Source of the DNA: a virus
Taxonomy: Duplodnaviria; Caudoviricetes
DNA length: 57,023 nt
Direction: 5' to 3' (one strand)
Virus record (IMG/VR): IMGVR_UViG_3300022917_000002
Location: 1 to 57,023 of that record
Positions 30,038-45,145 of the stretch are shown piece by piece; position 1 is the first letter of the stretch; each line of letters starts with the position of its first letter. The position numbers were made by a program, and so were the translations under genes. The notes beneath the pieces were generated by a model. That model was not told the origin of the DNA and made no database searches. It was given only the letters and a program-made list of their open reading frames with translations.

Positions 30038-30147
30038 GCCGGCTACGCGGGGTCCTCATGTGGCCCGTGTGGGCCGCGCTGGTTCTCCTCGGCCTGTCGG
30101 GGGGCATGGCTGCCGGAGCGCTCCTGGTGGGGCTGGCGGTCCGGTGA
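30034..30147 (+). CDS. Small membrane peptide
   Basis: Hydrophobic 37 aa, GTGA overlaps. Confidence 0.45.
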   Translation: MSRLRGVLMWPVWAALVLLGLSGGMAAGALLVGLAVR

Positions 30148-30305
30148 GCCGCATCGGCATCGACAGCGGCAACGGCTACTCCGACGCCGTGCGCCAGGCG
30201 TGGGACGCCGCTGGCCGTCCGAGCTGGGAGGACTGCGTCGAGGAGATGTCGCCCGAGGAGCGCGCCCTGTTCGACCAGCAGTTCGGCACCCTGGAGCAGT
30301 GGTGA
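30144..30305 (+). CDS. Hypothetical microprotein
   Basis: Coupled ORF. Confidence 0.5.
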   Translation: MSRIGIDSGNGYSDAVRQAWDAAGRPSWEDCVEEMSPEERALFDQQFGTLEQW

Positions 30306-30631
30306 GCCGCGCCAGCGACCGGCGGTCGACGAGCAACAGCAACACGCGGGGGTCTGCCGAGTCCCGGCGCCGTCGCCGCCGGTGGCTGGTCGAGCACTTC
30401 GGCGACGGCGTGCACGTGGCCTGTCACCTCCAGATCTCGCGGTACTGCGAGTACGTGTGCGACGAGGACAGCGTGTCGCCGGATCGGCTGGTGCTGGGTG
30501 CGGACGGCGGCAGCTACCGGAGGTCCAACATTCAGCCGGCGTGCCAGCCGTGCCAGCGCGAGCAGGGCGGGCTGGTGGGGCAGGCTCGCCGCAGAACCCC
30601 CATGTTGACACCCACGTCACTCGTGGGTTAG
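30302..30631 (+). CDS. HNH-like protein (DR variant)
   Basis: PDRLVLGADGGSYRRSNIQPACQPC. Confidence 0.75.
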   Translation: MSRASDRRSTSNSNTRGSAESRRRRRRWLVEHFGDGVHVACHLQISRYCEYVCDEDSVSPDRLVLGADGGSYRRSNIQPACQPCQREQGGLVGQARRRTPMLTPTSLVG

Positions 30632-30674
30632 GCTCTCTCTCGTAGGAAACAACTCCACAGAGAGAAGGACCCCC
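30605..30674 (+). promoter_or_regulatory. Repeated promoter/operator plus leader
   Basis: TTGACA-CCCACGTCACTCGTGGGT-TAGGCT; GAAACAACTCCACAGAGAGAAGGACC. Confidence 0.88.
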
Positions 30675-30947
30675 ATGAGCCTCACCGCCACCACGAACTA
30701 CGCCCACACCGTCGCTCGCCTGGCCGGCGTGGACGCTGAGCACCTGGCGGGCCTCGACCGTCGGGAACTCGATGTCCTGTACTTCGGCATCCTGTCCGAC
30801 GACGCGGCGCCCACCTTCCGCAGCATGGTGGACTACCTGGAGACTCCGGCCCTGGAGCTGTACGCCCTCCGTTCCGGCCTGTCCCGGGCGGAGCACGCCT
30901 ACTGCCGGCTGGCCCTGGCCCGCCGCGAGATCCGCGCCCGCGCGTAG
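30675..30947 (+). CDS. Hypothetical protein
   Basis: Follows leader. Confidence 0.75.
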   Translation: MSLTATTNYAHTVARLAGVDAEHLAGLDRRELDVLYFGILSDDAAPTFRSMVDYLETPALELYALRSGLSRAEHAYCRLALARREIRARA

Positions 30948-30970
30948 CCGTCCCGAGAAAGCCCCCGCGC

Positions 30971-31000
30971 AATGCCCCCGCCACTCCCGGCGGGGGCATT
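30971..31000 (+). terminator. Hairpin terminator between cassettes
   Basis: AATGCCCCCGCC/GGCGGGGGCATT. Confidence 0.7.
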
Positions 31001-31012
31001 CGCATGTCCGTG

Positions 31013-31087
31013 TTGACACCCATCCCCACAGGGGGTAGGGTTCTCCTCATACCGGAACAACCCCGCCAGGGAAGGACCAGCGACACC
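31013..31087 (+). promoter_or_regulatory. Repeated promoter/operator plus leader
   Basis: TTGACA-CCCATCCCCACAGGGGG-TAGGGT; GGAACAACCCCGCCAGGGAAGGACC. Confidence 0.85.
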
Positions 31088-31672
31088 ATGAGCCTCAACT
31101 GCTTTGACAAGGCCCCCCAGTTCATCGACTGCGCGCCCACCGTCGAGGGCCACCAGGCCGTGTGCGCCTGCGACTGGGCCTCCAAGATCGGCCCCCAGTC
31201 CGAGGTGATGCACGCCTGGGTCGAGCACACCCAGACCCCCCACCGCACCCGCATCGCCCCCGCGAGCGAAGGCCCGTTCTCCACGACCACGTGGAGCGGT
31301 GTCGATAACCAGGTCGGGCGCGACGGCCAGCGCCCCACCCTGTACTGGCAGGACCAGCACGACCTGGCCGTCGAACTGTGGCACGCCACCGTCGACAGCG
31401 GGTGGGACTTCGAGACCGCGTCGGCCGCCGTCGCCGCCGCCGTCAGCGGCCTGCCCGTGCTGATCACCTGGGCCACCCCGTTCCACGACAAGGTGGAGGT
31501 CAACAGCGGCCACGCCATCATCGACGGCATCACCTACGCCGGCCGAAGCACCCGGCTGCGGCTGCGCTACTCCGGGTTCAGCCACTACGTGGCCGCCAGC
31601 TCGGTCCGCTACATCCGTCAGGTGGGCGTCACCAACCGGATCATCGCGGACGGCGAGATGATCGCCCCGTGA
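31088..31672 (+). CDS. Hypothetical protein
   Basis: Follows leader; CACDW...H motif. Confidence 0.75.
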   Translation: MSLNCFDKAPQFIDCAPTVEGHQAVCACDWASKIGPQSEVMHAWVEHTQTPHRTRIAPASEGPFSTTTWSGVDNQVGRDGQRPTLYWQDQHDLAVELWHATVDSGWDFETASAAVAAAVSGLPVLITWATPFHDKVEVNSGHAIIDGITYAGRSTRLRLRYSGFSHYVAASSVRYIRQVGVTNRIIADGEMIAP

Positions 31673-32169
31673 ATCCGGCCTACTGGTTGGGGGTGGCGCT
31701 CGGATGGTCGGGCGTCACCCTCGGGTGTCTGTGGCTGCTCAACTTCTGTGTGCGCGGCCGGCTGGTACGCGCCGCGCACAAGCTCCTCGACCGGCCGCAG
31801 CGTCGAGCCGACGAGCGCGCTATCGCCCGCGCCCACCAGCGCATGCACGACATCCGCTTCTGGCAGGCGCGCCGTCGCCGACCCGGCCCGGAGGGCGAGG
31901 TGGCCCGGCAGATGTTGGCCATGCTGCCCCCGCTGGACTGTCCCTGCCCGCAGCACGCTCCCCGGCCGGATCGCGCCCTGGAGGCGCAGAGCCGCCAGGC
32001 AGAGATCCGCGAGGCCGGGGAACTTCAGGCTCGTGCGCTCGCCGCCTACCACGCCCGCGCGAGGGCTGGAGGCGACACGGTGCCCGTCGTCGCCTACGAC
32101 CAAAACCCCCACCTTCCCGCACCGAACCGACCGTGGCCCGACCCACGGCTCACCGACCACGAGTTCTGA
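31669..32169 (+). CDS. Membrane-anchored hypothetical protein
   Basis: N-terminal TM. Confidence 0.55.
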   Translation: MNPAYWLGVALGWSGVTLGCLWLLNFCVRGRLVRAAHKLLDRPQRRADERAIARAHQRMHDIRFWQARRRRPGPEGEVARQMLAMLPPLDCPCPQHAPRPDRALEAQSRQAEIREAGELQARALAAYHARARAGGDTVPVVAYDQNPHLPAPNRPWPDPRLTDHEF

Positions 32170-32179
32170 GGAGCACACC

Positions 32180-32671
32180 ATGACCGACACCCTGACTGCC
32201 CAGGTCAACCCGAAGCAGGAAGCGGCCGACTTCTATATCGGCCGAGGCCCCGACGCTGAGTTCATCGGCTGCATCACCGACGACGGTGCGCCCGAGGGAT
32301 ACGACCCGTGGGGCGAAGGCGCCCTCGACGCCTTCTTCCGATTCCAGTCCACCACCGACCACGAGTTCACCGACGAGGACTTCCGCGCCAAGGTCGCGGA
32401 TCTGCCGGCCGTACACGCCGACTGGGTGCACGAGTGGAACAGCTCGCGCGACACGCCGTGGTGCTACATGTACGACAAGGGCACCGTCTTCGTCTACCGC
32501 TTCGGCGTGGAGATGGGGCAGCTGCGCTGCAACTTCACCCGCTGGGCGCCGCGCCGTGTCCGCAACGACGACGGCACCGTCACCACCTACCCCGGCGAGA
32601 TGGTGCGCGTGCCCCGCGACACCGCTCACGACAAGTTCCCGACGATGCGCAAGGAGAGCAAGCATGCATGA
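32180..32671 (+). CDS. Hypothetical protein
   Basis: ADFYIGRGPDAEFIG motif; GAGGAG RBS. Confidence 0.75.
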   Translation: MTDTLTAQVNPKQEAADFYIGRGPDAEFIGCITDDGAPEGYDPWGEGALDAFFRFQSTTDHEFTDEDFRAKVADLPAVHADWVHEWNSSRDTPWCYMYDKGTVFVYRFGVEMGQLRCNFTRWAPRRVRNDDGTVTTYPGEMVRVPRDTAHDKFPTMRKESKHA

Positions 32672-32930
32672 CCCCGCCGTGGCCCGCCGCTACCAGGAGC
32701 GGGCCGCCGCTCAGGCCGACCAGCTGAAGGCCGACCGAGACCGCTTGTCCACCTTCCTCATCTCGTGCATGATCGCCGTATTCGTGCTGGTGGCCGGCGT
32801 CGGGTTCATCGCCACCCGCGACTACGTGTGGCTCCTGTACGCGGCCGTCACGTTCCTCGCCGGCTCGTTCGTGTGCTCGGGCATCGTGTTCTACCGCTAC
32901 CCCAAGCCCCGGGCTCCCCGACGGCCGTGA
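32664..32930 (+). CDS. Membrane protein
   Basis: Two TM helices; AAGGAG RBS. Confidence 0.65.
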   Translation: MHDPAVARRYQERAAAQADQLKADRDRLSTFLISCMIAVFVLVAGVGFIATRDYVWLLYAAVTFLAGSFVCSGIVFYRYPKPRAPRRP

Positions 32931-33018
32931 CCGCCGCGCCCTCGACCCCCAAGCCCACCACCGGCTTGGGGGTCGAGCCGTAGCATGGGGGCGGTACCCC
33001 ACGAACCTGGAGGAGCCC

Positions 33019-33489
33019 ATGGCCCCCATCCTGCGCACCACCCGACGCCCGGCCACCGAGGCCGTGGAGTCCCTCGTCAAGCGCGTCGCGCCCCGACCCA
33101 CCTGCGTGGCGCTCGCGCTCTTCCCGGCCATGCTGCGGCTCCCGGACGGCACCCGCGTCGCCGTCGGCAAGGTGTTCTACACGCCGCAGGGCCTGTACGT
33201 GTACGACCGGGCGCCCAAGAACCGGGACGACGCGTCGAGCGTGGCCGACTTCGATCCGGACGGCCTGTTCCTGAGCAACATCCGGTTCTGGTCGAAGATC
33301 CACTACGACGACACGCCCAGGCCGGTCACCGGCCATGCTGCGGTCAACACCGGCCACCGGGTGGTCACCGACGCGGGTGTTGTTCAGGTGCAAAAGCTGG
33401 TCGGCTGCGGGTGCTCGCACGGCACACTCAAGCGGTGGTCGCCGAGGTGGGCGGCCCGTCGTATCGCGTGGGAGGACCTCCGATCATGA
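33019..33489 (+). CDS. Hypothetical protein with GCGCS motif
   Basis: GGAGGAG RBS; such genes often precede portal genes in this phage group. Confidence 0.7.
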   Translation: MAPILRTTRRPATEAVESLVKRVAPRPTCVALALFPAMLRLPDGTRVAVGKVFYTPQGLYVYDRAPKNRDDASSVADFDPDGLFLSNIRFWSKIHYDDTPRPVTGHAAVNTGHRVVTDAGVVQVQKLVGCGCSHGTLKRWSPRWAARRIAWEDLRS

Positions 33490-33683
33490 TCAACAACTAC
33501 CTGATCAGCCTGCTGATGTGCCTGGGTCTCATCGCCGCCGGGCTCGCCACCGCAGGCGTGGGCGTCCGCACCGGTGACGGGCGGGCCGTCGTCCGCACCA
33601 TCTCCACCGCCGGATGGGCCGCCGTGCTCCTCGGGCTCGTGAGCGCCATTCTCGTCGTGATCAACTGGACATACACCGCGTGA
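33486..33683 (+). CDS. Small membrane protein
   Basis: Two TM helices. Confidence 0.6.
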   Translation: MINNYLISLLMCLGLIAAGLATAGVGVRTGDGRAVVRTISTAGWAAVLLGLVSAILVVINWTYTA

Positions 33684-34114
33684 ACATCGACTGGATCAGC
33701 CACCCCGTGTGGCTGATCGTCAACGGCCTGGTGGCGTTCCGGCTCGCCCGGCTCGTCGTCGATGACGCCCTACCGCCGCTGCCCCGTGTCCGCGCGGCCC
33801 TCGTCGCCTGGGCCGAACGCCGTGCCGCCCGCGAGATCGCCGAGGCGCGCAGAGCCGACCAGGCCGCGCACGGCAAGCCGGCACTGGTCGACGGAGAGCC
33901 GAGGATCGGGCCGCACGAGCAGGCCGTCTACGATCGGCGCCAGCCCTACGACGGCGAGCCGTCGCTGGTCACGCTCATCTCCTGCTACTGGTGCGCCGGG
34001 TTCTGGACCTCGGTCGCCACCGTCGCGGGCGCCAGCCTCCTGCCCACCACAGTGTGGTCGCTCATCGCGGCCCCGCTCGCCCTCTCCGCCATCGTGGGCC
34101 TCGCCGCACGCTGA
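33680..34114 (+). CDS. DUF1360-like membrane protein
   Basis: FRLARLVVDD...LISCYWCAGFW. Confidence 0.75.
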   Translation: MNIDWISHPVWLIVNGLVAFRLARLVVDDALPPLPRVRAALVAWAERRAAREIAEARRADQAAHGKPALVDGEPRIGPHEQAVYDRRQPYDGEPSLVTLISCYWCAGFWTSVATVAGASLLPTTVWSLIAAPLALSAIVGLAAR

Positions 34115-34130
34115 CCGTAGGAGTCACCCC

Positions 34131-36836
34131 ATGCCGCTGTTTGGCCGCGCTCAGCCGAACGAGTACCAGGAGCGCGTGCTGCGCGTCGCCGAGAGTCTGG
34201 AGCGCGTCCACCACGCCCGCAGCAACCCCCGCGTGCTACGGGCCTCCGGCATGCGCATCGAGCCCATGAGCGCGGAGCGGCTGCGCGCGGTCGCCGGCAA
34301 CCGGCAGTCCTGGCAGTCCCTGGCCTGGGCATACCGAGACATGATCATCGAACTCCGGTACGCCTTCCAGTTCCGGGCCCGCGCCATCTCCCGCGTCAAG
34401 TTCTACGTCGCCGAAATCCTGGAGGACGACGACGAGCCCATCGCCGTGTCGATGCGCCACGACGAGGACGCAGACAGGCGCAAGCGCGTCACCGTGCCCG
34501 AGCAGCTCGCCGCCGCCGCCGAGGCCGAGCTGGCCCGCCTGCCCCTCGACAGCTACGAGTTCACCGGCGTCTGGTCGGAGAACTTCGACGTGGCCGGGGA
34601 CTGCTGGATGCACGGATCGATCGACCCCTACACCGAGGAAGAGGTGTGGAAGATCCGGTCGGTGATGGATGTCGACGTGGCCGGCACCCGCATGACCGTC
34701 AAGGACGAGCTCGGCCAGCCTCGCGCGATCAACCTCGACTCCGAGGAGCTGTACCGGCTGTGGATGCCGCACGCCGCGCACGGCCACCTCGCGGACTCGG
34801 CCCTCAACGCGGGCGCCGACGTGCTCGAAGAGATCACCCTGTTGGGTCGCGAGCTGCGGGCCGCGAGCCGCTCCCGCGTCGCCGCGAACGGCATCCTGTT
34901 CGTCCCCGAGTCGATGACCCAGATGCGCGCCACCGGCGAGGACGACGACACGGCCGGCAGTCGCCGCGACCGGTTCATGGCCGACCTGGCCGCCACCCTG
35001 CTGGCCCCGATCGCCAACGAAGGGGACGCGGGCGCCGTGGTGCCCGCCATCATCACCGGCACCATCGAGGACATTCAAGCCATCCGGCACCTGCGTCTGG
35101 AGCGGGAGGACTCGCCCACCCTGCTCGCCAAGCTCGACAAGGCCATGTCGCGCATGGCCAACGGCCTAGACATCCCCCCGGAGATCCTCACCGGCATGGC
35201 GGACGTGAACCACTGGACGGCGTGGCAGATCGACAACGCCACGTTCCGGCACCACCTGGAGCCCTCCATCCGGATCATGGCCGACAGCCTCACCGCCGCC
35301 TACCTGCGGCCCGCCCTGGCCAAGGGCGCGTTCCCGGCCAGCGAGGCCAAGCGCCTGCGGATCTGGTACGACGCGGGCAGCATCACCGAGAACCCGAACC
35401 GGCGACAGGACGCCCTCGACGCCCTCGACCGCATCCTGATCGGCCCGGCCGCCGGCCGCGAGGCCCTCGGGTTCAACGACGGCGACGCCCCCACCCCCGA
35501 GGAAGCGCTACAGCTGATCGCCGCCAAGAACGGCATCGACACCGGTGCGGCGACCGCCATCCTCGCTGGATTCGCGAAGGCCGAGGGCGCCGAGGTGCCG
35601 CAGCTCCCGGCCGCACAGGAGTCGCGGCAGCTGCCGGCCGCCCGTCCGGACGAGCCGGCCGCCGAGCCGGACGCCCCCGGCGGCACCGGCGCCCCGTCGA
35701 CCGCCCCGCCGGGCATCGCCGCCTCGGCGACCCCCGCCGCGCTGGTCGCCTCCAGCAAGCCGGCGTTCCGCTCCCTGCTGGACGACAGTCGCGAGCTGGC
35801 CGACATCGACGCCACCGTCCGCGACCTCATCCTCAGCGACGTGGACCAGGCGCTGCGCCGAGCACTGGAGCGCGCCGGCTCGCGCCTGCGATCCAAGGCC
35901 ACCCGTGACATGGAGCTGCACGCCCAGCTACGCGCCTACCCGGTGCAGACCTGGCCGCAGCGCCTCGGCCCCGAACAGTGCCTCAAGCTGGACGCCAGCG
36001 CCCGGCACCTGATCGCGGGCGCCTGGGAGTCCGTCTCCCGCAAGTTCGCCGAGCGGGTCAACGACGGCATCCGCAAGGTGGTGGCACGCGTGCTGCGCAT
36101 GCTGGGCCTGAAGGCGGACACCACGGCCGGGGCGGCCGCCGCCGCGCGCGTGCGGTCCGCGATGGAGTCCCGCGTGGACGAGGCGTGGTCCACGCTGGAG
36201 ACCTCCCTGGACGCGCACCTGGAGAAGGTGATGTTCGGGGGGCTGGACGAGACCGCCGACGGCGAGGCCCCCGAGGTCGATGTGCCGCCCGGCCTGGTGC
36301 GGGACGCGCTCGCGTTCGTGGGCGGCATGCCGGAGACCTCGGCCGGCATGCACAACGGCCGCTCCCTCACCGGTGAGCCGGTGGGCGGCCTGGGCAACGG
36401 CACCGCCGTCGTCGGCGAACTCACCAACGCAGGCGCCGTGCACCTCGGGTTCGAGTGGCGCTACGGCTACATGCCGCGCTCCACGTTCGAGCCGCACCTG
36501 GCCCTGGACGGCGAGCGGTTCGACTCGTGGACCGATCCGGTGCTGGGTGTGCGGGAGAGTGATCGGTGGCTGCGCGCCAGCCACTACCACCCGGGCGACC
36601 ACGCGGGCTGCCTGTGCACCTACTTCAGCGTGTACGCGCTGCCCACCGGCGGCCCGGTTGACGACATCGTGGCGGCCCGGCTCGCCATGCCGCCCTCGGC
36701 CGCGATGGCGGACTTGATCCGGCTGGCGGACATGGACGACCAGGCGGGCCGCAGCGGCACGACGGCGCAGCAGCAACGCGACCAGTACCTTGCCGTGCGC
36801 GGCCTGAAGAGGGATTTCCTGGAGGGTGGATCGTGA
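34131..36836 (+). CDS. Portal protein fused to MuF-like head morphogenesis domain
   Basis: WQSLAW.Y, RMANGLDIPPEILTG..NHWTAWQI; C-terminal HPGDHAGCLC. Confidence 0.85.
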   Translation: MPLFGRAQPNEYQERVLRVAESLERVHHARSNPRVLRASGMRIEPMSAERLRAVAGNRQSWQSLAWAYRDMIIELRYAFQFRARAISRVKFYVAEILEDDDEPIAVSMRHDEDADRRKRVTVPEQLAAAAEAELARLPLDSYEFTGVWSENFDVAGDCWMHGSIDPYTEEEVWKIRSVMDVDVAGTRMTVKDELGQPRAINLDSEELYRLWMPHAAHGHLADSALNAGADVLEEITLLGRELRAASRSRVAANGILFVPESMTQMRATGEDDDTAGSRRDRFMADLAATLLAPIANEGDAGAVVPAIITGTIEDIQAIRHLRLEREDSPTLLAKLDKAMSRMANGLDIPPEILTGMADVNHWTAWQIDNATFRHHLEPSIRIMADSLTAAYLRPALAKGAFPASEAKRLRIWYDAGSITENPNRRQDALDALDRILIGPAAGREALGFNDGDAPTPEEALQLIAAKNGIDTGAATAILAGFAKAEGAEVPQLPAAQESRQLPAARPDEPAAEPDAPGGTGAPSTAPPGIAASATPAALVASSKPAFRSLLDDSRELADIDATVRDLILSDVDQALRRALERAGSRLRSKATRDMELHAQLRAYPVQTWPQRLGPEQCLKLDASARHLIAGAWESVSRKFAERVNDGIRKVVARVLRMLGLKADTTAGAAAAARVRSAMESRVDEAWSTLETSLDAHLEKVMFGGLDETADGEAPEVDVPPGLVRDALAFVGGMPETSAGMHNGRSLTGEPVGGLGNGTAVVGELTNAGAVHLGFEWRYGYMPRSTFEPHLALDGERFDSWTDPVLGVRESDRWLRASHYHPGDHAGCLCTYFSVYALPTGGPVDDIVAARLAMPPSAAMADLIRLADMDDQAGRSGTTAQQQRDQYLAVRGLKRDFLEGGS

Positions 36837-37186
36837 GCGAGGAGTTCGTTGCGCGGCCTGAGCCGCTGCGCGGGTATCGGGAGCTGACCGACGAGGAGCG
36901 CGAGCTGGTCGACGCCATCAAGGTGGCGGAGCAGGCGGTGGGGCAGGTGTGGGCGCGAGCCAAGCGCACCCTGGGCACCGATGCGCGGATGCACGCGCAC
37001 AGCCGCACCGTGTTGCAGGACGGTTTCATGTGGCTGGAGCGTTCGGTGACCCGGCCACGCGATGTGTTCACCGCCGCACTGTCCACTCTAGACGGCCCCG
37101 AGGGCCCGCCCGGAACGTCCTCTGTAGAACCAAACTCCGCTCAACCAAGCCAAGATCACCGTCCGGATAAGGAGGGCCCCCGATGA
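36833..37186 (+). CDS. acb2: Acb2-like cyclic-oligonucleotide sponge
   Basis: GYRELTDEERELVDAIK...R......TVLQDGFMWLERSVTRP matches the Acb2 pattern GYRDLSQEE..MN.VK...T.IQTG.M..IRAIAQP. Confidence 0.75.
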   Translation: MSEEFVARPEPLRGYRELTDEERELVDAIKVAEQAVGQVWARAKRTLGTDARMHAHSRTVLQDGFMWLERSVTRPRDVFTAALSTLDGPEGPPGTSSVEPNSAQPSQDHRPDKEGPR

Positions 37187-39774
37187 GCGCGCCCGTCATC
37201 GACCCCACCGCCAGCACCGAGGGCATCCCCGAGAACGCCGTGCCCATCCGCCTGCCGGTCATGGTGATCGAGGGCATGGAGACCTCCGACCACCGCTACA
37301 TCGAGCCCGGCACCCTCACCACCCGCACCCTGCCCATCCCGCTCTACGCCGCGACCCGCTCCACCCACGGCGCCGACGGCGACGCGGCCACCTGGCACGT
37401 CGGGGCCATCACCCACGCCGAGCGCGTGCCCGGCCCGCAGGTGGTCGACATGGACGGCAACGCCCTGCCGGAGGGCACCTTCGCCTGGCAGGGAACCGGC
37501 TGGATGTACACCGACGTGCCCGCCGCCCCCGCGAAGTCGGCCTACCAGCTGGTCAAGGACAAGGCGCTGCGCGGCAACAGCGTCGACATGACCGAGGTGG
37601 TGGCCGAATACCAGGACGCGGCCGGGCAGCTCGCCGACGAGGGCACCTACGTCCGCATCTCCATGCAGTCCGGCGTCATCGCCGCCACCACCCTCGTGGG
37701 CATCCCGGCCTTCGCCGGCGCCTACATCGAGCTGGACGGCCAGGCCATGGCGGCCGCCGAGCACGCCGACACCCTGACCGCCGCCGCGTGGCCGTCCTGG
37801 CGCTCCCTCGACCTCGGCGACGAGTGCTCGCCGTGTGCCGCCGGGGACGACGACATCGTGGGCGAGCTGCGTGCCCTGGCGGCCGCGATCGGCGACGACT
37901 TCGACCCGCCCGAGAACGACTACTCCACCAGCGGCATGGTGGCGCTCATCCCGGCGAACCCGAACATGCTGCTCGTGCCCGGCGGCGACCCGGCCGAGGA
38001 GCTGCACCTGACGCTGGCCTACCTCGGCGATGAGGTGGACACGTGGGGCCCCGAGCAGGTGTCGGCCGTGCACCGCATCGCCCTGGAGACCACCGACCAG
38101 GCCGCCATGATCGAGCGCTACCGCCGCGAGGCGACGGAGCGCGGCGACAAGACCCCCGATCCGGCCAGCGACTACGGGCGCTCCCCCGCGCAGGAGGGGC
38201 CCCTGGACGCCAGCATCTTTGCGCACGCCGTGTTCAACCCGGCCGACAACCCGGCAACCGTGTACCTGCTCGACGGGGGCGGCCAGCGCGAGGCGATCGA
38301 GTGGCTGCACAACGACATCGTGGGCGCACTGCGCAACGCCCTCGGCAACACCATCCTGCCCGAGCAGCACAGCCCGTTCGTGCCGCACGTGACGGCCGGC
38401 TACGGCGTGCCGGTCGACCAGCTCACCTACACCGGCCCCATCACCTTCGACCGCCTGCGTGTCGCGATCGGTGACGACGTGGTGGACTACCCGCTGGGTG
38501 GCGGGGATGTCGCGCTGGTGGCCTCGGTCGAGTCCCTGCCGCCCGCCAGCATCTTCACCAACCCCAACCTGCCGGGCCCCACCCCGCACACCGTGGAGGA
38601 GACCGGGGCGCCGTGGGGCGACATCGTGTACGGCCACCTGGCCGCGTGGGAGACCTGCCACACCGGCATGGCGGGGCGCTGCGTCACCCCGCCCCGGTCG
38701 GCCACCGGCTACGCCTATTTCATGGTCCACGCCACCCGGGCACAGGACGCTGACGGCAACCCGGTCACCGTGCCTGTCGGGTACGGCACCATCTCGCGCG
38801 GCCCCGGGCAGGGTGGGCACGCCGGCCTGAGCCTGTCCGCGCAGGAGACCGCCGCCCACTACGACAACACGTGCACGGCCGCGTTCGAGATCGCCGTCGG
38901 GGAAGACGACTACGGCATCTGGTACGCGGGCCGGCTGCTCCCCGGGCTCGACGAGCAGACCCGCCACAAGGCGTTCGGGGCCGTGTTCTCCGGCGACTGG
39001 CGGCCGGTGCGCGGCAACCGCGAGCTGATGGCCGCACTGGCCGTGAACACCCCCGGGTTCCCGGTGGTGCGCGCCCTGGTCGCCTCCGGCCAGCCGGGTG
39101 CCCTGGTCGCGGCCGGCGCCGTGCCGCAGCGCGAGACGGCGCCCGAGGAGCCGGTCAGCGAGACGGCGGAGCTGCTCGCCTGGGTGCGAGAGCAGAAGCT
39201 GGCGGCCACCAGGGCAGCGCGCGTCGAGGAGCTGGAGCACCTTCTGGCGGGCGTCGAGCTGGTCGGCGCGGCGGACCGGCTGGCGGAGGCCGAGGTGGAG
39301 TTGCTGCTCCAGCTCGACGGCGACCACCCGTGGTTCGCCGACGGCGCACAGGTGGCCGGCTGGGAGGGCTCCGTGGGGCCGCTCACCGAGGGCGGCTACG
39401 TCGAGCCGCACGTGTACGCGCGTGACGTGCACTCCGGTGCCGGCAACTGCGTGTGCGGGTCGGCCCTCGGTGACCAGCTGCACGTACAGGCCGCGCCTGG
39501 GGTGCCGGTTCCGGACTCGATGCGGGCCGCGCTCACGGCGGCCGGACGCAAGGTGCTGCACCTGCCGCCCTACATCAAGCGCATCTCGAAGCACCTGCGA
39601 GAGAAGGGGATGGCGCAGGGCCGTGCCATCGCCACGGCGGTGAACGCGGCCAAGAAGATGTGCGCCACCGGCGACCTCAACTTTCCCGGGTCCCAGCAGG
39701 TCAACCCGGGCAGTCGCGCCGAGGCGTGCGCGGCTGTCGCCCAGTGGAAGAAGGACCGGCCCGGGGCGCGGTAG
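37183..39774 (+). CDS. Capsid maturation protease, multidomain, with internal 2H phosphoesterase
   Basis: EGMETSDHR...LPIPL...H...GAI; HLT and HVT 2H motifs; GHLAAWETCH domain. Confidence 0.8.
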   Translation: MSAPVIDPTASTEGIPENAVPIRLPVMVIEGMETSDHRYIEPGTLTTRTLPIPLYAATRSTHGADGDAATWHVGAITHAERVPGPQVVDMDGNALPEGTFAWQGTGWMYTDVPAAPAKSAYQLVKDKALRGNSVDMTEVVAEYQDAAGQLADEGTYVRISMQSGVIAATTLVGIPAFAGAYIELDGQAMAAAEHADTLTAAAWPSWRSLDLGDECSPCAAGDDDIVGELRALAAAIGDDFDPPENDYSTSGMVALIPANPNMLLVPGGDPAEELHLTLAYLGDEVDTWGPEQVSAVHRIALETTDQAAMIERYRREATERGDKTPDPASDYGRSPAQEGPLDASIFAHAVFNPADNPATVYLLDGGGQREAIEWLHNDIVGALRNALGNTILPEQHSPFVPHVTAGYGVPVDQLTYTGPITFDRLRVAIGDDVVDYPLGGGDVALVASVESLPPASIFTNPNLPGPTPHTVEETGAPWGDIVYGHLAAWETCHTGMAGRCVTPPRSATGYAYFMVHATRAQDADGNPVTVPVGYGTISRGPGQGGHAGLSLSAQETAAHYDNTCTAAFEIAVGEDDYGIWYAGRLLPGLDEQTRHKAFGAVFSGDWRPVRGNRELMAALAVNTPGFPVVRALVASGQPGALVAAGAVPQRETAPEEPVSETAELLAWVREQKLAATRAARVEELEHLLAGVELVGAADRLAEAEVELLLQLDGDHPWFADGAQVAGWEGSVGPLTEGGYVEPHVYARDVHSGAGNCVCGSALGDQLHVQAAPGVPVPDSMRAALTAAGRKVLHLPPYIKRISKHLREKGMAQGRAIATAVNAAKKMCATGDLNFPGSQQVNPGSRAEACAAVAQWKKDRPGAR

Positions 39775-39810
39775 AGTGTCCTCGGGTTCGTTCTGCATGA
39801 GGTAGGGGAA

Positions 39811-39864
39811 GGCCCCCGACCGGAGCACCCCAACGACTGTGATTCGTTGGTCCGGTCGGGGGCC
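39811..39864. terminator. Long hairpin between convergent genes
   Basis: GGCCCCCGACCGGA/TCCGGTCGGGGGCC. Confidence 0.7.
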
Positions 39865-39880
39865 GACTGCTGTCACCTCC

Positions 39881-40099
39881 CTACGGGGTCCCGCCGCACA
39901 GCGGACCCACCGCGCCGTTGCATGGCGGCCCGTTCACATGGGTGTGCTCTTGGTAGCGGCACTTCTGTCCGCCCTCCCTGTTGAAGCAGGCCCCCGGTAT
40001 CGAGTAGTCGTGCGTGTGCTCCGTCTGCGTGCACACGCGCGTGATGCTGTAGCAGCTGCTCGCGTGGTGGCTCTTGCCGGTCGTTGGGCAGTAGCTCAT
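39881..40099 (-). CDS. Cys/His-rich microprotein
   Basis: Repeated C...EHTH....C. Confidence 0.6.
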   Translation of the reverse strand: MSYCPTTGKSHHASSCYSITRVCTQTEHTHDYSIPGACFNREGGQKCRYQEHTHVNGPPCNGAVGPLCGGTP

Positions 40100-40254
40100 G
40101 ACGACCTGTCCAGCGCGGCGCAGAGGTCGCAGGATGAGCCCACCTGCACCGAGTGCCCCCGCCCGCAGGGGACGCGCTGCGGCGGGGCGGGGGCCGGCGT
40201 CTGTGGCCGGTCGTCCTCGTCCCGGGTGCCGTCCGCCCTGTGCTTACCGCCCAC
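40096..40254 (-). CDS. Zn-finger microprotein
   Basis: MGGKHR...CGRGH......CDLC; GGAGG RBS. Confidence 0.6.
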   Translation of the reverse strand: MGGKHRADGTRDEDDRPQTPAPAPPQRVPCGRGHSVQVGSSCDLCAALDRSS

Positions 40255-40378
40255 TGCTGTCCTCCTGCTCGTCTTGCTTCCTGCGCAGGGCCTCCTGCGC
40301 CCGCGCTGTCGCGGCCTGAACGTGCTGGGCGTGCTGCTCCTGGAGCAGCCGCTTTAGGGTCTCCTCGTCGCTCTCGAT
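40244..40378 (-). CDS. Charged helical microprotein (apparent ATC start)
   Basis: ESDEETLKRLLQEQ...; in-frame stop just upstream, no NTG start. Confidence 0.4.
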   Translation of the reverse strand: MESDEETLKRLLQEQHAQHVQAATARAQEALRRKQDEQEDSSGR

Positions 40379-40388
40379 CGCCTCTCAC

Positions 40389-40517
40389 CTACCCTTTCCT
40401 GTCGCGTTCCTTGTCACGCCGCAGTAGCTCCGCGACGCGCTCGCGCTCGACGCGCAAGGCCTCTTCCTCGGCGGCCCGCACCTCCTCGGGTGTCGGGCCG
40501 CCCGGCTCGCCAGCCAT
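40389..40517 (-). CDS. Charged helical microprotein
   Basis: MAGEPGGPTPEEVRAAEEEALRVERER; GAGG RBS. Confidence 0.6.
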   Translation of the reverse strand: MAGEPGGPTPEEVRAAEEEALRVERERVAELLRRDKERDRKG

Positions 40518-40519
40518 CC

Positions 40520-40927
40520 CTACCTCGTGATCGCCGTGTACCCCTCACCGTCGAGCGCGGCGCCGACAGCGGTCCGCACCACGCGCTCCACGTCCCGCAG
40601 CGCCTGGTTGTAGCCGTCGTCGTAGGCGCGGCCCGTCGTGCCGGGCGCGTTCAGCATCGGTGCGGGCCGGAGCGCGCGGACGGAACGGGCCAGGTTCACC
40701 ACGGCCCGGTGCTGAACCACCACGAAGTCGAGGGCCTCTGCGGCGGTCTCGAAGACCGCGATGGTACGGGTGGCCAGGTAGCTGCCGGCCCACGCGGTGG
40801 CGTGCATCTGGCTGTAGTAGCCGACCTTCACACCGTTGGCGTGGACCTCTTTGAGCTCGGGGTCGTGGGGGGCGGGGGAGGTGGTGAAGTCAAGGGGCTC
40901 GTGCGGGGTGATGGTCGCGATGCTCAC
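40520..40927 (-). CDS. Hypothetical protein
   Basis: Follows conserved leader; AYDDGYNQAL. Confidence 0.7.
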   Translation of the reverse strand: MSIATITPHEPLDFTTSPAPHDPELKEVHANGVKVGYYSQMHATAWAGSYLATRTIAVFETAAEALDFVVVQHRAVVNLARSVRALRPAPMLNAPGTTGRAYDDGYNQALRDVERVVRTAVGAALDGEGYTAITR

Positions 40928-41007
40928 GGGGGTCCTTCCCTCGGTGGGGTTGTTCCTGACACCACGAACCCTACCGGTTGACACCCACGTGCGCAAGGGG
41001 TTACTTT
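40928..41007. promoter_or_regulatory. Overlapping divergent promoters sharing an operator
   Basis: Plus strand TTGACA-N18-TACTTT; minus strand TTGCGC-N17-TAGGGT with GTCAGGAACAACCCC..GGGAAGGACC leader. Confidence 0.85.
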
Positions 41008-41038
41008 GGTGTCAGTCCGAACGACCGAGGAGAGGAAA

Positions 41039-41302
41039 ATGCGCCGCATCCGTCGCGCCGCCCGCTGGTGCTGGCCCCAGCGAGGCGCCCGCTACCAGGG
41101 CGAAACCGCGTTCAAGTACAACGCCATCGGGTTCCTGCTGCGTGCCGGCGTGTACCTGGCGATCGGGTTCGTCGCCTTCGGTGTCTGGTACAGCGCCACC
41201 ATGGCCGACCGGCAGCGCGACGAGCACGGCAACCTGAAGGCCACCTACTCGCAGTGGTGCGACTGGCTGACCACGGCGAGCGACGACACCTGTTACCGGT
41301 AG
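41039..41302 (+). CDS. Membrane protein
   Basis: Single TM; GAGG RBS. Confidence 0.6.
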   Translation: MRRIRRAARWCWPQRGARYQGETAFKYNAIGFLLRAGVYLAIGFVAFGVWYSATMADRQRDEHGNLKATYSQWCDWLTTASDDTCYR

Positions 41303-41308
41303 GAGCCC

Positions 41309-41608
41309 ATGCAGATACCCACCAAAGACACCACGGCGTGCGTGGCCTGCGGCGAGCCGATCGTGTTCGCCCGCGAGACCGGCAGAATCCGCAAGGGCAA
41401 GCCCGCCATCGTCGCCCTCGACCCGGTCCCCGCCAGCGCGGGCAAATGGGTCATGGGCGACCAGGGCGACGAGTACTTCGCCGGCAAGGTCCGGTCCAAC
41501 CAGGCCGCCGGAATGCGGGCGGCCGGCGTCCAGCTGCACACCGCCCACAACGACACGTGCGCCAAGAAGGACGAGTACATCCGCAAGAAGCGCTCGTGGA
41601 ACCAGTAG
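41309..41608 (+). CDS. Zn-binding hypothetical protein
   Basis: CVACGEPIVFA...LDP.P...H.AH..TC. Confidence 0.75.
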   Translation: MQIPTKDTTACVACGEPIVFARETGRIRKGKPAIVALDPVPASAGKWVMGDQGDEYFAGKVRSNQAAGMRAAGVQLHTAHNDTCAKKDEYIRKKRSWNQ

Positions 41609-41622
41609 CCGAGGAGAAACCC

Positions 41623-41802
41623 GTGCCCCGCAACCCCGTAGGCGAGTTCAACACCCGAGGCCAGGGCAAGTGTCCGCACTGCTCCGACTGGAAACCGGAG
41701 GCGTGGATCGATTCGCACACTCAGTCCTGTCCCCAGAACCCCGAGAACAAGCCAGCTACAGGTAACGATTCGGCAACGACACCGGACAACGCGAAGGGGT
41801 AG
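41623..41802 (+). CDS. C2HC Zn-finger microprotein
   Basis: CPHC.........H...CP.NP. Confidence 0.6.
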   Translation: MPRNPVGEFNTRGQGKCPHCSDWKPEAWIDSHTQSCPQNPENKPATGNDSATTPDNAKG

Positions 41803-41824
41803 CACCCCGCCAGCACTACAACCA

Positions 41825-41861
41825 CGAGGCGCCCCCGGCATCTCCCGCCGGGGGCGCCTCG
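41825..41861 (+). terminator. GC hairpin
   Basis: CGAGGCGCCCCCGGC/GCCGGGGGCGCCTCG. Confidence 0.65.
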
Positions 41862-42016
41862 CCATGCAATACCGTGCAAGACCCACATAGACCCCCGGTC
41901 ACCTCGATAGTCTCGCGGCAACGGAGACAAACACCCGAGCAGCGCAGGCCCAGCCTCCCGCCGCTCGCCGGCCCAGCCGGTCAACGCTCCGCCCCACAGA
42001 CGAGAGGACCGAGAGC

Positions 42017-43912
42017 ATGACCGCGCAGTTCAACGCGGACATCCTTACTCGGCTGGGCGACCTGACCCGCGACGAGCTGCGCTCCGCGCTCTCCGCGATC
42101 CGGGCCGACGCAGCCGCGTTCAAGGATGAGCCCGTCACCGAAGACTCGGTGGCCAAGTACAACACCCTGGTGGAGGCCGCGCGCAGCATCAACGCGCAGC
42201 TCGCCAACCTCGACCAGCTCGCCGCCACCAGCACCGCGCAGTTCGCCGAACTGGACGACCTCACCGCGCCGGCCGCCAGCGACAGCGGCGACACCGCCAC
42301 CACCGCCACCACCGACGGCGACAACGTCAACGACGGCCGCGTGGGCGACGGCAGCACGCCCGGCAATGCGGACGCTCAGGCGGCCCTGAACAAGGCCGAG
42401 GACGACGACGCGAAGGCCGACGACAAGACCAGCGGCGACACCACCCCCGACGGCGACGACAACACCGGCGCCGACGACGACACCAAGGAGGGCGGCCCCG
42501 TGACCGCATCCGGCCGCCGGCCGCTCGGCAACGGCGCCACCACCCCCGCCATCGCCCGCCTGCCGCAGATCAAGTCGGTCACGACCGTCGCCGGTGGCAT
42601 CGACGGCCACAGTCCGGGCGCGCGGCTCGACCGCCGGTCCCTCGCCGAGGCGTTCCGCGCCAAGGCGATGGCCGTCAGCGGTCGCGGTGTCTCCGGGTTC
42701 GAGCGGTACACGGTCGCCACGGTGCGCTCCGAGTTCCCCGAGGAGCGGATGCTGCACCGCAGTGCCGACCCGTTCGCCAACATCGAGCGCATCGAGGACG
42801 TGGCGGAGCGCGCGAGCCGGCTCCACGCCCGCGACAACGCGAGCAACCGCGTGCAGGTCCGCTCCGGGCTCGACGGCGAGGGCGCCCTGACGGCGGCCGG
42901 CCTGTGCGCCCCGCTGGAGAACCTGTACGACATCCGCACCATCGGCGACACCGACCGCCCGGTCCGTGACGCGCTCGTGCGGTTCGGCGCCGACCGTGGC
43001 GGCATCCAGTGGCGGCCCGCGCTCGACGGTGTCACCCAGACCGGTGGCATCGGTGTGTGGAGCGAGGCGAACGATGAGGCGTCGCCGCTGGTCCCCAAGA
43101 CCTGCGTGGAGATCGCCTGCCCCGGCCTGCTGACCGCCGTCGTCGACGCGATCTACCAGTGCCTGACGTTCTCGAACATGTCCACCCGCTTCGACCCGGA
43201 GTGGATGGACTCGACCATCAAGGCGCAGGCCATCGCGCACGCCCGCTTCGCCGAGAACCGGCTGCTCGGCCAGCTGACCACGGCGTCGAAGGACATCTAC
43301 GGCACGCGCCTGCTGGGCGCCACCCGCGACATCCTGTTCACGCTGGACGCGATCATCGCCTACTACCGCAACGTGCACCGTCTGGCCGACGAGGTGTCGC
43401 TGCGGTGGATCGCCCCGCTCTGGGCGAAGTACCTGATGCGCGCCGACATCACCCGCCAGATGGTGGGCGACGGCCTCCAGTCGCTGGCGATCACCGACGC
43501 CATGCTGAACGGCTGGTTGGCGGAGCGCAACATCAACGTCACGTGGCACCTGGACGGGATCGACCCGGCCGACTTCACGGTCCCGGCCCCGGACATCGTG
43601 GTCCCGGCGCAGTACTACACGCTGGCCATCAACGAGTCCGCGCTGCCGGCGTTCCCGACCTCGGTCAGCTCGCTGCTGTTCGCCGAGGGCGACTGGCTTC
43701 ACCTCGACGGGGGGACCCTGGACCTGGGCGTGGTGCGCGACTCCACCCTCAACGGCCAGAACCGGTTCCAGACGTTCTCCGAGTCGTTCGAGGTGCCGGC
43801 GTTCCGGGGCATCGAGTCCATCCACCTGGTCATCCCGGCACTGCCCACCGGCGAGTCGGCGGCGACCGCGAACACGGCGGTCGACACGGTCCCCGAGCCC
43901 GCCCCCGCGTAA
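42017..43912 (+). CDS. Major capsid (hexamer) protein with N-terminal scaffold region
   Basis: ALTAAGLCAP...YD, RGGI, KTCVEIAC, LDLGVVRDSTLNGQN..TFSE, cluster-B-like. Confidence 0.9.
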   Translation: MTAQFNADILTRLGDLTRDELRSALSAIRADAAAFKDEPVTEDSVAKYNTLVEAARSINAQLANLDQLAATSTAQFAELDDLTAPAASDSGDTATTATTDGDNVNDGRVGDGSTPGNADAQAALNKAEDDDAKADDKTSGDTTPDGDDNTGADDDTKEGGPVTASGRRPLGNGATTPAIARLPQIKSVTTVAGGIDGHSPGARLDRRSLAEAFRAKAMAVSGRGVSGFERYTVATVRSEFPEERMLHRSADPFANIERIEDVAERASRLHARDNASNRVQVRSGLDGEGALTAAGLCAPLENLYDIRTIGDTDRPVRDALVRFGADRGGIQWRPALDGVTQTGGIGVWSEANDEASPLVPKTCVEIACPGLLTAVVDAIYQCLTFSNMSTRFDPEWMDSTIKAQAIAHARFAENRLLGQLTTASKDIYGTRLLGATRDILFTLDAIIAYYRNVHRLADEVSLRWIAPLWAKYLMRADITRQMVGDGLQSLAITDAMLNGWLAERNINVTWHLDGIDPADFTVPAPDIVVPAQYYTLAINESALPAFPTSVSSLLFAEGDWLHLDGGTLDLGVVRDSTLNGQNRFQTFSESFEVPAFRGIESIHLVIPALPTGESAATANTAVDTVPEPAPA

Positions 43913-43990
43913 CCACATCCGGCTCCTCGCCGGGCCGCGCGCCTCGGTACGCGGCCCGGCGAGGATCTCCACATCAGAGGAGGTGGGAGC

Positions 43991-45133: not shown

Positions 45134-45145
45134 CGAGGAGGATGG

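Follow-up and report, generated by a model that had tools for sequence, protein, structure and literature searches.

The phage genome analysed here (the window; a complete IMG/VR genome of 57,023 bp, high in GC content) carries, between its portal and head-maturation protease genes, an open reading frame of 117 aa that is well supported from its sequence as a real Acb2-family gene keeping the known ligand-contact residues. The gene appears to be a clade-specific addition in a variable portal-protease slot, and the protease polyprotein encoded next to it contains a 2H phosphoesterase domain which, judged by sequence and fold, is a common LigT-like module and not a recognisable Acb1. The preliminary description of this region had proposed an anti-CBASS shield wired into the head-assembly module. 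In part that interpretation stands: the sponge, its place in the head operon and the 2H catalytic dyad are retained, whereas the Acb1 identity, the joint assembly of the two activities and a designed 'wiring' are not. With the window, the Acb2 family gains a well-supported member and an informative synteny pattern comes to light, but no new mechanism is added.

The portal gene (34131..36836, on the plus strand like all features below) was matched by phrog_776 in the PHROG scan, over residues 147-776 and with an E-value of 2.7e-97. Its longest ORF runs from 33762; the probable start is the ATG at 34131, which has AGGAG preceding it. The portal has a C-terminal extension of ∼250 aa, a candidate MuF-like region, and had been described as a portal-MuF protein. 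The portal assignment is clear, but the Pfam MuF model (PF04233) matched neither the whole portal ORF at E ≤ 0.1 nor its last 278 aa at E ≤ 10, and BLASTP detected no similarity between the C-terminal part and the MuF region of the homologue P0094. Next to the portal gene lie the gene of the 117-aa protein (36833..37186) and that of an 863-aa head-maturation polyprotein (37183..39774); the major head protein gene (42017..43912; phrog_777, E 4e-69) defines the head module. Position, anatomy and overlaps of the Acb2-like gene are as originally described. Its GTG start at 36833 overlaps the portal TGA (36834-36836) in a GTGA, its own TGA (37184-37186) overlaps the ATG of the 863-aa ORF (37183) in an ATGA, and both starts have GGAGG-like sites upstream; the gene order, with the Acb2-like gene directly before the prohead protease in the head operon, was also borne out. 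Special coupling signalled by the overlaps was considered and rejected. Eight other four-base start/stop overlaps occur among the 66 ORFs called by codon-position GC, and because such overlaps are common in this genome, those joining portal, Acb2 and protease are ordinary operon structure.

The 117-aa protein matches the Pfam model of the Acb2/Tad1 hairpin (PF24729) with 41.6 bits (cut-off 27, E 1.4e-10); a six-frame search of the window with this model gave 42.7 bits and places the hairpin core at 36872..37054. Its 62-sequence profile retrieved the PaMx33 Acb2 structure 8h2j at E 1e-23, 8ixz at 7.7e-23 and T4 Vs.4 (7uq2) at 1.9e-12. Profiles are needed for these matches, as the single-sequence PDB search gave E-values of only 0.36-0.79; NCBIfam gave nothing useful. 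A chance ORF was rejected on the strong homology, a core GC3 of 0.86 and 102 database relatives at E ≤ 0.001. In the AF2 model the protein folds into a two-helix hairpin, with pLDDT of 88-96 for the residue blocks 11-70. The nine best PDB matches of the model in Foldseek are all Acb2/Vs.4 proteins, but at E-values of about 1, which are not significant. The comparison with Acb2 by HMM and structure, with the Pfam match above cut-off, the profile match and the hairpin model, upheld the claim of an Acb2-like gene.

In PaMx33 Acb2, Y11 and K26 belong to the cyclic-dinucleotide pocket, R67 and T74 to the cyclic-trinucleotide pocket (PMC10312549). According to the HMM alignments, these residues correspond to Y15 (36875-36877), K30 (36920-36922), R52 (36986-36988) and T59 (37007-37009) of the window protein, and PaMx33 L14 and P90 correspond to L18 and P75. 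G14, Y15, R16, K30, D50, R70 and P75 are at least 90% conserved in the 62 homologues; R52 and T59 are invariant in the six closest ones. The residues of the cyclic-trinucleotide pocket vary within the Acb2 family, and the equivalent of T59 is Asp in the slot genes of the related loci L005 and L024.

Like the Acb2 proteins of PaMx33 and JBD67 and T4 Vs.4, the window protein is of the PF24729 family, aligns to them over its full length in profile searches, is modelled as a two-helix hairpin and shares the Tyr/Lys and Arg/Thr pocket residues; self-association is predicted for it as well. The four-copy model with cGAMP scored 0.63 (runs 0.63, 0.53 and 0.67) against 0.01 for the best of three controls, and so passed a mark that, in the calibration of the tool, 20 of the 30 solved pairs but only 1 of the 23 single chains attain; this calibration applies only roughly here. 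The runs agree in at least 71% of contacts, with a partner pLDDT of at least 66. Since Acb2 hexamers have already been solved, this pass may reflect mere likeness to them. Different from the solved Acb2 proteins, to which it is only about 20-25% identical, the window protein has an inter-helix loop ∼19 residues shorter (compared to PaMx33 Acb2) and a disordered 30-residue tail through the protease leader, and its phage has a high-GC, actinobacterial-type host; its role as a sponge is a prediction. Most likely, the protein would form the usual homo-oligomer and sequester CBASS-type cyclic di- and trinucleotides. The low identity and the much shorter loop would also suit a sponge for some other signal, either Thoeris 3'cADPR or an undescribed actinobacterial one, in which case the label 'anti-CBASS' would be wrong and the family right. 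We regard this as improbable: Acb2_43, which binds the Thoeris signal, relies on additional β-strands at its N- and C-termini and on residues outside the Tyr/Lys pair, whereas the CBASS-type Tyr/Lys pair, the base-packing Leu and Pro and the Arg/Thr pair for cyclic trinucleotides are all kept in the window protein.

The 863-aa polyprotein is composed of an N-terminal β domain, the 2H phosphoesterase, the head-maturation protease, a coiled coil and a C-terminal helical domain. Its AF2 model, built with 50 sequences, has a mean pLDDT of 77.9 and contains disordered linkers at residues 194-234 and 625-656; its BFVD matches are actinophage 'capsid maturation protease', 'RNA ligase' and 'capsid morphogenesis' proteins. 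The β-rich domain (residues 10-193, 37210..37761) has pLDDT values mostly above 90 and no Pfam match at E ≤ 10. It is kept in relatives and follows the 2H domain in seven of them (L022, L023, L026, L027, L028, L034 and L035). The protease domain (residues about 450-625, 38530..39057) was identified by phrog_18402 (E 7.7e-71, residues 457-649), by phrog_29860 (E 8.6e-40) and by Foldseek matches to BFVD entries named 'prohead protease' or 'capsid maturation protease'; the single-sequence PDB search matched no solved structure to the polyprotein. H485, C492, H493, C500, H546 and the S603-G-D-W-R motif are invariant in 50 homologues, and H485, H546 and S603 are the His/Ser catalytic candidates. 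PHROG homology and gene order together confirm a prohead protease between the portal and the major head protein. The long helices (residues 660-712) and the C-terminal helical domain (778-858), delineated in the model by secondary structure and pLDDT, span 39161..39756. By analogy with the way protease-scaffold fusions are generally built, the helical part may be scaffold-like or capsid-binding.

The 2H domain (residues about 245-440, 37915..38502) is ∼195 aa in size, including a helical insert of ∼50 aa, and carries the motifs H275-L-T277 (38005-38013) and H402-V-T404 (38386-38394). None of the 22 sequences of the 2H alignment departs from the two His residues or the first Thr, the second Thr is at least 90% conserved, and both HxT motifs are at least 90% conserved in the 50 full-length homologues. 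In Foldseek, the domain has 28 PDB matches at E ≤ 0.001, and those listed are 2H proteins. The preliminary description had placed a 2H domain in the protease; fold, intact dyad and location in the same polyprotein agree with this, but by sequence the match to PF13563 is marginal: with a cut-off of 27 bits, the isolated domain scores 27.7 and the full-length protein falls short at 22.9. The 2H fold with two His-x-Thr/Ser motifs is common to the whole superfamily.

By the one family test available, the 2H domain is not an Acb1. The Pfam Acb1 model (PF23474) matched neither the whole protein at E ≤ 0.1 nor the isolated domain at E ≤ 10, although the model is present in the set and matches gp25 of Gordonia phage Chidiebere at 19.1 bits, and the domain was rejected as an Acb1. 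By sequence and fold its nearest relatives are LigT-type 2',3'-cyclic phosphodiesterases. The best fold matches are of LigT/CPDase type (1vdx, E 4.4e-5; 5h7e; 1iuh; E. coli LigT 5ld*), whereas Acb1 (7t27) ranks 17th with an E-value of 4.8e-4 and a TM to target of 0.45; TM values are 0.53-0.61 for LigT and 0.45-0.51 for Acb1. Other fold matches are the rotavirus and coronavirus 2',5'-phosphodiesterases and 9q2g, a phosphodiesterase of Burkholderia phage BCSR5. The 22-sequence 2H profile retrieved only LigT-type chains from the PDB, weakly (1iuh, E 0.01), and no Acb1 chain at E ≤ 10. T4, like the window phage, combines a 2H-fold enzyme with an Acb2 sponge in one phage. Compared to T4 Acb1, however, the window domain lacks the PF23474 match, is LigT-like, has the helical insert and is part of a head polyprotein, whereas the T4 Acb1 and Acb2 genes are presumably separate and outside the head operon.

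As to function, the 2H domain could be a phosphodiesterase directed against the nucleotide signals of host immunity, which it would remove, an assignment that we make tentatively and at somewhat below even chances. Viral 2H enzymes of known role often degrade immune nucleotides, as do Acb1 and the rotavirus and coronavirus 2',5'-phosphodiesterases. Rather unlikely, but the chief competitor, is the reading that the domain is instead a LigT-like RNA 2',3'-cyclic phosphodiesterase or a Usb1-like RNase, which would act on RNA ends and be unconnected with immune nucleotides. Its task could then be to help mend tRNAs that anticodon nucleases of the host have cleaved, or it could be delivered from the capsid and attack the RNA of the host. 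The LigT/CPDase-type best fold matches, the LigT-type chains as the sole sequence-level PDB matches of the profile, and the Pfam matches of the isolated domain to PF13563 and, weakly, to PF02834 (LigT_PEase) all speak for action on RNA ends. Iyer et al. 2017 (PMC5512222) propose that 2H domains, when joined to MuF or portal proteins, are packaged and act as an RNase, the first suggestion given there, or in degradation of host nucleotide signals. However, no RtcB or Rnl2 ligase was found in the phage, and PHROG scans of 30 other ORFs also named no ligase. In addition, 2H genes recur beside genes of the PF24729 sponge family, both in the window clade and in Chidiebere, and some of the viral enzymes that destroy immune nucleotides are among the fold matches of the domain.

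The 2H-protease fusion was found in 27 of 36 related loci, in 1007 isolate phage records and in 206 database proteins. Different from the fusion, the slot Acb2 is restricted. In 24 related loci both gene ends could be resolved; several loci are near-duplicates, so that the counts are not independent. Of the 24, seven carry an Acb2 of the GYR type in the portal-protease gap and one further locus (L026) has a different PF24729 gene there; 12 have no gene between portal and protease, and two have an unrelated small ORF, that of L015 being phrog_2293-like. In L024, a phosphoheptose-isomerase-like ORF (phrog_1238-like) shares the gap with Acb2, and the unrelated ORFs imply that the slot accepts unrelated cargo. 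Of five complete relatives lacking the slot Acb2, four have no PF24729 gene anywhere in the genome. The GYR-type slot carriers all fall in one clade of the protease tree, a provisional statement because this tree (MAFFT and FastTree) is without support values. The related-locus search returned no relative when queried with the Acb2 protein alone, and only two loci with a six-sequence Acb2 alignment; tblastn with the window Acb2 matched 11 phage records, with no actinophage among them. The fusion is older and far more widespread than the Acb2 gene, so that the two did not come together as a single 'shield'.

The fusion itself is familiar from actinophages. Proteins annotated as 'capsid maturation protease' or 'RNA ligase', such as gp19 of Gordonia phage MelBins, share homology with the window polyprotein in both the 2H and the protease domain, with ∼37% identity in residues 222-683, and occupy the same head-module position; the matching records number 1007. 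In isolates of this group, MuF, HIT and RMF-like genes lie upstream instead of Acb2. In Chidiebere, gp23-gp26 are a portal, a PF24729 hairpin protein (73 bits), a 2H 'RNA ligase' and a VIP2-like ADP-ribosyltransferase. The portal/hairpin/2H order and the overlapping gene ends are the same as in the window, and BLASTP shows the two 2H domains to be homologous (5e-6). However, the Chidiebere hairpin belongs to a different subfamily and has no BLASTP match to the Acb2-like protein of the window, and the Chidiebere 2H protein is a stand-alone protein of 331 aa, unfused to a protease. The idea of a 2H enzyme on a capsid-interior protein is that of Iyer et al. 2017 (PMC5512222), where fusions to MuF and portal are named and the term 'prohead protease' appears once. 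Our literature search found no paper with an Acb2 gene directly 5' of a 2H-protease fusion, and the supplementary homologue lists of Acb2 papers could include such phages.

Placement of Acb2 in a head operon is likewise not new, because JBD67 and L002 already show it: the JBD67 gene also lies in the head module, but two genes downstream of the one for the major head protein and not between portal and protease, and that of L002 lies between terminase and portal. The adjacency in the window might have no functional meaning, the gap being a permissive mosaic junction in which Acb2 landed once in one lineage. This we hold to be unlikely, though not negligible. The single clade of GYR-type carriers would fit such a junction, as would a slot that is empty in half of the loci or holds unrelated ORFs (L015, L024). 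Acb2-family genes also lie far from head genes in other phages (Statler gp57, with the protease at gp24; the L008 genome; Cheetobro gene 5), and four-base overlaps are ordinary in the window genome. On the other hand, head or packaging operons contain sponge-family genes in no fewer than four unconnected cases (the window clade, L026, JBD67 and L002/Chidiebere), and a stoichiometric sponge would gain from late, high expression when the trigger is also made late.

That prohead proteases can be such triggers, as the preliminary description stated, is reported in PMC12991175 (2026 preprint): their activity directly switches on CBASS cyclases (CD-NTases), many of them, and T4 without Acb1 and Acb2 is highly CBASS-sensitive, the trigger being the T4 prohead protease gp21. 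As part of the late head operon, the window sponge would appear simultaneously with the prohead protease and in comparable amounts, and late co-expression of the two is plausible. The explanation we prefer, and consider somewhat probable as a whole, is that of a sponge cassette in a late head operon beside an ancient 2H polyprotein. In this explanation, the sponge would be a cassette in the variable slot between portal and polyprotein, expressed together with the other late head genes, and the likely benefit of its position would be timing with the CBASS-triggering protease, not a physical link. The polyprotein would be an ancient actinophage protein present throughout the lineage, with a LigT-like 2H domain of intact dyad, which the protease/scaffold part probably brings into the procapsid. 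It is also conceivable, but quite unlikely in our estimate, that the 2H domains form a non-Acb1 family of immune-signal phosphodiesterases, loaded into the capsid and acting at the site of the protease or in the next host; in that case, the slot would be dedicated to receiving exchangeable PF24729 sponge cassettes as a backup to the enzyme, and a two-layer anti-signalling module would be typical of actinophage head operons.

With the sponge gene immediately 5' of the protease gene, the window would be a tidy natural case of a counter-measure expressed with its trigger. Its clade provides a natural comparison, since close relatives have the slot gene, lack it or have a different hairpin gene. 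The role of the 2H domain is the larger question, as roughly a thousand actinophage isolates, many easily grown, have it fused to their head protease.

The 3' end of the sponge gene differs from the rest of it. The segment 37091..37183, which encodes the disordered C-terminal tail (pLDDT below 50 in the AF2 model), has a GC3 of 0.58, compared to 0.86 for the Acb2 core and 0.94-0.96 for the flanking genes. It includes the ribosome-binding site of the protease, AAGGAGG, and represents the low-GC3 leader of the protease gene; its nucleotide sequence is conserved 5' of the protease ATG in L005, L012 and L024.

The window spans an entire IMG/VR virus record (57,023 bases), which carries direct terminal repeats and is estimated to be complete; its G+C content is ∼0.70–0.72 along the whole length. 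Megablast of positions 30000–50000 against 50,697 phage records identified no close nucleotide relative. At the protein level, the 863-residue polyprotein encoded at 37183–39774 (+ strand) matches 1007 phage records, every identity being below 60%. Since these matches are dominated by phages of Mycobacterium (612), Gordonia (207), Microbacterium (131), Arthrobacter and Streptomyces, the host is likely an actinobacterium.

The portal gene (probable ATG start at 34131, end at 36836, + strand) is clear from its match to phrog_776 (E 2.7e-97). Its TGA (36834–36836) overlaps the GTG (36833) of a small, 117-residue ORF (36833–37186, + strand), and the TGA of the small ORF (37184–37186) overlaps the ATG (37183) of the polyprotein; GGAGG-type sites precede both starts. 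These GTGA/ATGA overlaps are as stated in the preliminary description, which took them as translational coupling; however, four-base start/stop overlaps occur at 8 further junctions among the 66 ORFs called by codon-position GC, so those found here represent normal operon structure and nothing special. The portal had also been described as a portal–MuF protein, but neither Pfam scans nor BLASTP against the MuF region of P0094, a MuF-bearing homologue, confirmed such a domain towards the C-terminus. The large terminase gene (15692–17293) is located ∼17 kb upstream of the portal gene (34131–36836), an unusual distance for packaging genes; the interval is packed with small ORFs, and none of the 11 scanned there has a PHROG match. 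Between the polyprotein and major head protein genes, 39881–40996 (minus strand) contains two to three ORFs with coding-like GC3 of 0.83–0.90 and no family match.

The small protein matches the Acb2/Tad1 hairpin model of Pfam (PF24729) with 41.6 bits, the cut-off being 27. HMMER run over all 1.84 billion representatives returned 102 relatives at E ≤ 0.001. For the alignment, the window protein was joined by 61 relatives, the shorter proteins of the best 72, long and fused ones being dropped. G14, Y15, R16, K30, D50, R70 and P75 are conserved in at least 90% of the 62 sequences, and the resulting profile aligns end to end with PaMx33 Acb2 (8h2j, E 1e-23) and T4 Vs.4 (7uq2, E 1.9e-12). In the HMM alignments, Y15 and K30 correspond to Y11 and K26 of PaMx33 Acb2, which, according to PMC10312549, stack on and salt-bridge cyclic dinucleotides, binding being abolished by alanine changes. 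R52 and T59 correspond to R67 and T74, described in the same source as holding cA3 (PMC10312549), and L18 and P75 to L14 and P90, which pack against the adenine in the account of PMC12393519.

The AlphaFold2 model of the small protein is a two-helix hairpin (pLDDT 88–96 over residue blocks 11–70) with a disordered tail. Its best nine PDB fold matches are all Acb2/Vs.4 chains, with E-values of ∼1, as expected for a small and helical protein. The inter-helix loop is ∼19 residues shorter than that of PaMx33 Acb2, which fits the variable middle region noted in the original description of Acb2 (bioRxiv 10.1101/2022.03.30.486325). Modeled as four copies with two cGAMP riding along, the protein scored 0.63 (runs 0.63, 0.53 and 0.67), the best of three controls being 0.01, with run agreement of at least 71% of contacts and partner pLDDT of at least 66. 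When the tool was calibrated, 20 of 30 solved pairs came up to the pass mark, as did 1 of 23 single chains, a calibration that applies only roughly here; as Acb2 hexamers have already been solved, the score shows likeness, not proof. Residues 7–35 (window 36833–36940) also weakly match chain A of PDB 9s14 (E 0.36), a 99-residue protein named 'DBS1' that has a Tyr-Arg-Glu-Leu-Thr-Asp stretch in common with the small protein.

These HMM and structure comparisons bear out the Acb2-like assignment of the preliminary description. The assignment is strong, and the small gene very probably encodes a functional Acb2-type sponge. Because both nucleotide pockets are conserved, CBASS-type ligands are favoured, although PF24729-family members with other ligands exist.

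In the polyprotein, PHROG head-maturation protease families match residues 457–649 (E 7.7e-71) and a PHROG 'RNA ligase' family matches residues 334–440. The model (mean pLDDT 77.9) contains, all on the + strand, one N-terminal β-rich domain (residues 10–193), a disordered linker (194–234), the 2H domain (∼245–440), the protease domain (∼450–625), long helices (660–712) and a helical C-terminal domain (778–858). Of 206 homologues, 120 were listed and 49 of those were aligned with the window protein; H275, T277, H402 and T404 are conserved in at least 90% of the 50 sequences. Among 22 copies of the 2H domain (the window and 21 of 25 locus copies, four near-duplicates being left out), both histidines and the first threonine are invariant, and the second threonine is kept in at least 90%. 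The claim that the protease contains a 2H domain is thus sustained by the conserved HxT dyad residues and by the 2H fold of the model; the domain is real and conserved, and it is probably active.

Two further cysteine-containing elements are invariant in the 50 homologues: the C215/C218 CxxC pair (window 37825–37836) in the otherwise disordered linker, and H485, C492, H493 and C500 (window 38635–38682) in the protease domain. Together they could form a candidate zinc site joining the linker to the protease. One Trp-Glu-Gly-Ser ... Cys-x-Cys-Gly block, modeled at low confidence, covers residues ∼727–778 (window ∼39360–39520); the same block is present in P0094 (residues 383–430) and in an ORF in the gap of L027, a related locus (4854–5180).

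The 2H domain is not recognisable as an Acb1. The Pfam Acb1 model PF23474 matches gp25 of Gordonia phage Chidiebere (19.1 bits); in a Pfam scan of the isolated window domain at E ≤ 10 it has no match, the sole models to score being PF13563 (27.7 bits) and LigT_PEase (14.3 bits). Searched against the PDB, the 22-sequence 2H profile retrieved LigT-type chains only, weakly (1iuh, E 0.01; 1vdx, E 0.31; Escherichia coli LigT, E 0.4), and no Acb1 chain. Foldseek with the whole polyprotein model gave 28 PDB matches at E ≤ 0.001, LigT/CPDase-type proteins being on top (best 1vdx, E 4.4e-5; TM to target 0.53–0.61). Acb1 (7t27) ranks 17th (E 4.8e-4, TM 0.45), together with further 2H phosphodiesterases of viruses. 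As PF23474 does not match it, we rejected the domain as an Acb1. Owing to its fold and catalytic dyad it belongs to the 2H superfamily, nearest to the LigT branch by sequence and model, a placement from which the substrate cannot be read.

What the 2H domain does is a matter of competing readings. Fusions of 2H domains to MuF or portal proteins were reported by Iyer et al. (2017), who suggested that such domains serve as RNases or break down nucleotides produced by host counter-invader systems (PMC5512222). Degradation of immune nucleotides by the window domain is the favoured reading, though somewhat short of an even chance. Processing of RNA ends is somewhat less likely. The phage encodes no RtcB or Rnl2-type ligase, and no partner for RNA repair turned up when another 30 ORFs were scanned against PHROG, which makes a heal-and-seal role less likely. 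The remaining probability falls to other roles. We infer that the domain would be loaded into the capsid; its target is likewise putative.

Scanning IMG/VR with the polyprotein yielded 36 loci, 27 of which contain the 2H domain by BLASTP; L029–L032 have the protease domain without it, and the other loci lacking it are truncated. In one branch of relatives, comprising L022, L023, L026, L027, L028, L034 and L035, the order is swapped to 2H, β domain, protease, and some database homologues have a MuF domain added in front. Given these rearrangements, the 2H domain acts like a movable module within an old polyprotein.

The portal–protease gap can be delimited on both sides in 24 loci. GYR-type Acb2, named after its GYR motif, lies directly before the protease in seven (L004, L005, L006, L009, L010, L012 and L024). 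L026 has a different PF24729 hairpin gene (49.7 bits) there, L015 and L027 have another small ORF family (phrog_2293 for L015), and L007 and L008 just an N-terminal extension of the protease ORF; in the other 12 the portal abuts the protease (gap ≤90 bases). As several loci are near-duplicates, these counts are not independent events. In a midpoint-rooted FastTree of the protease region, built without support values, the window and all seven GYR-type loci fall into one clade, which also includes L007 and L008. The genome from which L008 comes carries a non-GYR hairpin gene away from this slot; four other complete relatives contain no PF24729 gene anywhere. The phrog_2293 ORFs (L015:4389–4658, L027:5099–5476) are small and contain cysteine, and a phosphoheptose-isomerase-like ORF (phrog_1238, L024:4178–4543) adjoins the Acb2 gene of L024 within the slot.

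Identity between the window Acb2 and the slot genes of the related loci is just 37–43%, compared to 50–69% for the flanking portal and polyprotein domains. GC3 is 0.86 in the Acb2 core, 0.94–0.96 in the neighbours and 0.58 in the 30-residue Acb2 tail. The tail (window 37091–37183) corresponds to a stretch of DNA that L005, L012 and L024 have kept ahead of the protease ATG, and their Acb2 cores are just ∼37–39% identical to that of the window; the stretch could be a leader/ribosome-binding region, or a recombination boundary. The small gene appears to be a cassette in a variable slot, its ORF running through the protease leader, and the window allele may have been swapped in by recombination.

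T4 carries Acb1 plus Acb2; according to a preprint (PMC12991175), its prohead protease gp21 is sufficient to switch on a CBASS cyclase by means of the protease active site, and an activation loop of this kind is present in a cyclase of ∼24% of CBASS operons. An earlier preprint reportedly linked prohead-protease mutations to CBASS evasion. From the operon structure, it is reasonable to infer that Acb2 is co-expressed with the protease, which fits the protease-trigger model. The position of Acb2 beside the protease is neither unique nor required, and there are precedents for Acb2 within late structural operons. In JBD67, acb2 (23005–23232, as deleted in the experiments described in PMC10312549) maps to gp34; the major head protein is encoded two genes upstream of it and the head-maturation protease ∼1.6 kb upstream. 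The IMG/VR locus L002 has, between its large terminase and portal genes, an Acb2 49% identical to that of the window. Acb2 was annotated earlier in an actinophage, as gp57 of Microbacterium phage Statler, distant from the protease gp24. The sponge plus 2H-protease arrangement offers a useful comparative pattern, not a new mechanism.

In Chidiebere, the portal gene is followed in turn by genes for a PF24729 hairpin (73 bits), for a 2H protein that stands alone and for a VIP2-like ADP-ribosyltransferase. The 2H protein is homologous to the window 2H domain (BLASTP 5e-6), whereas the hairpin has no BLASTP similarity to the window Acb2. In the isolate Gordonia phage MelBins (L043, 2835–3397), HIT-family (40.4 bits) and ribosome-modulation-factor-like (40.3 bits) genes separate MuF from the 2H-protease, so that this portion of the head operon holds additional accessory genes. 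Actinophages commonly carry another PF24729 subfamily, in which GYR is replaced by HHPP (272 phage records); it is found at L026:4754–4999, L040:1102–1725 and L045:4998–5216, and in Chidiebere-like Gordonia phages the HHPP-type hairpin gene lies directly after the portal and before a 2H gene.
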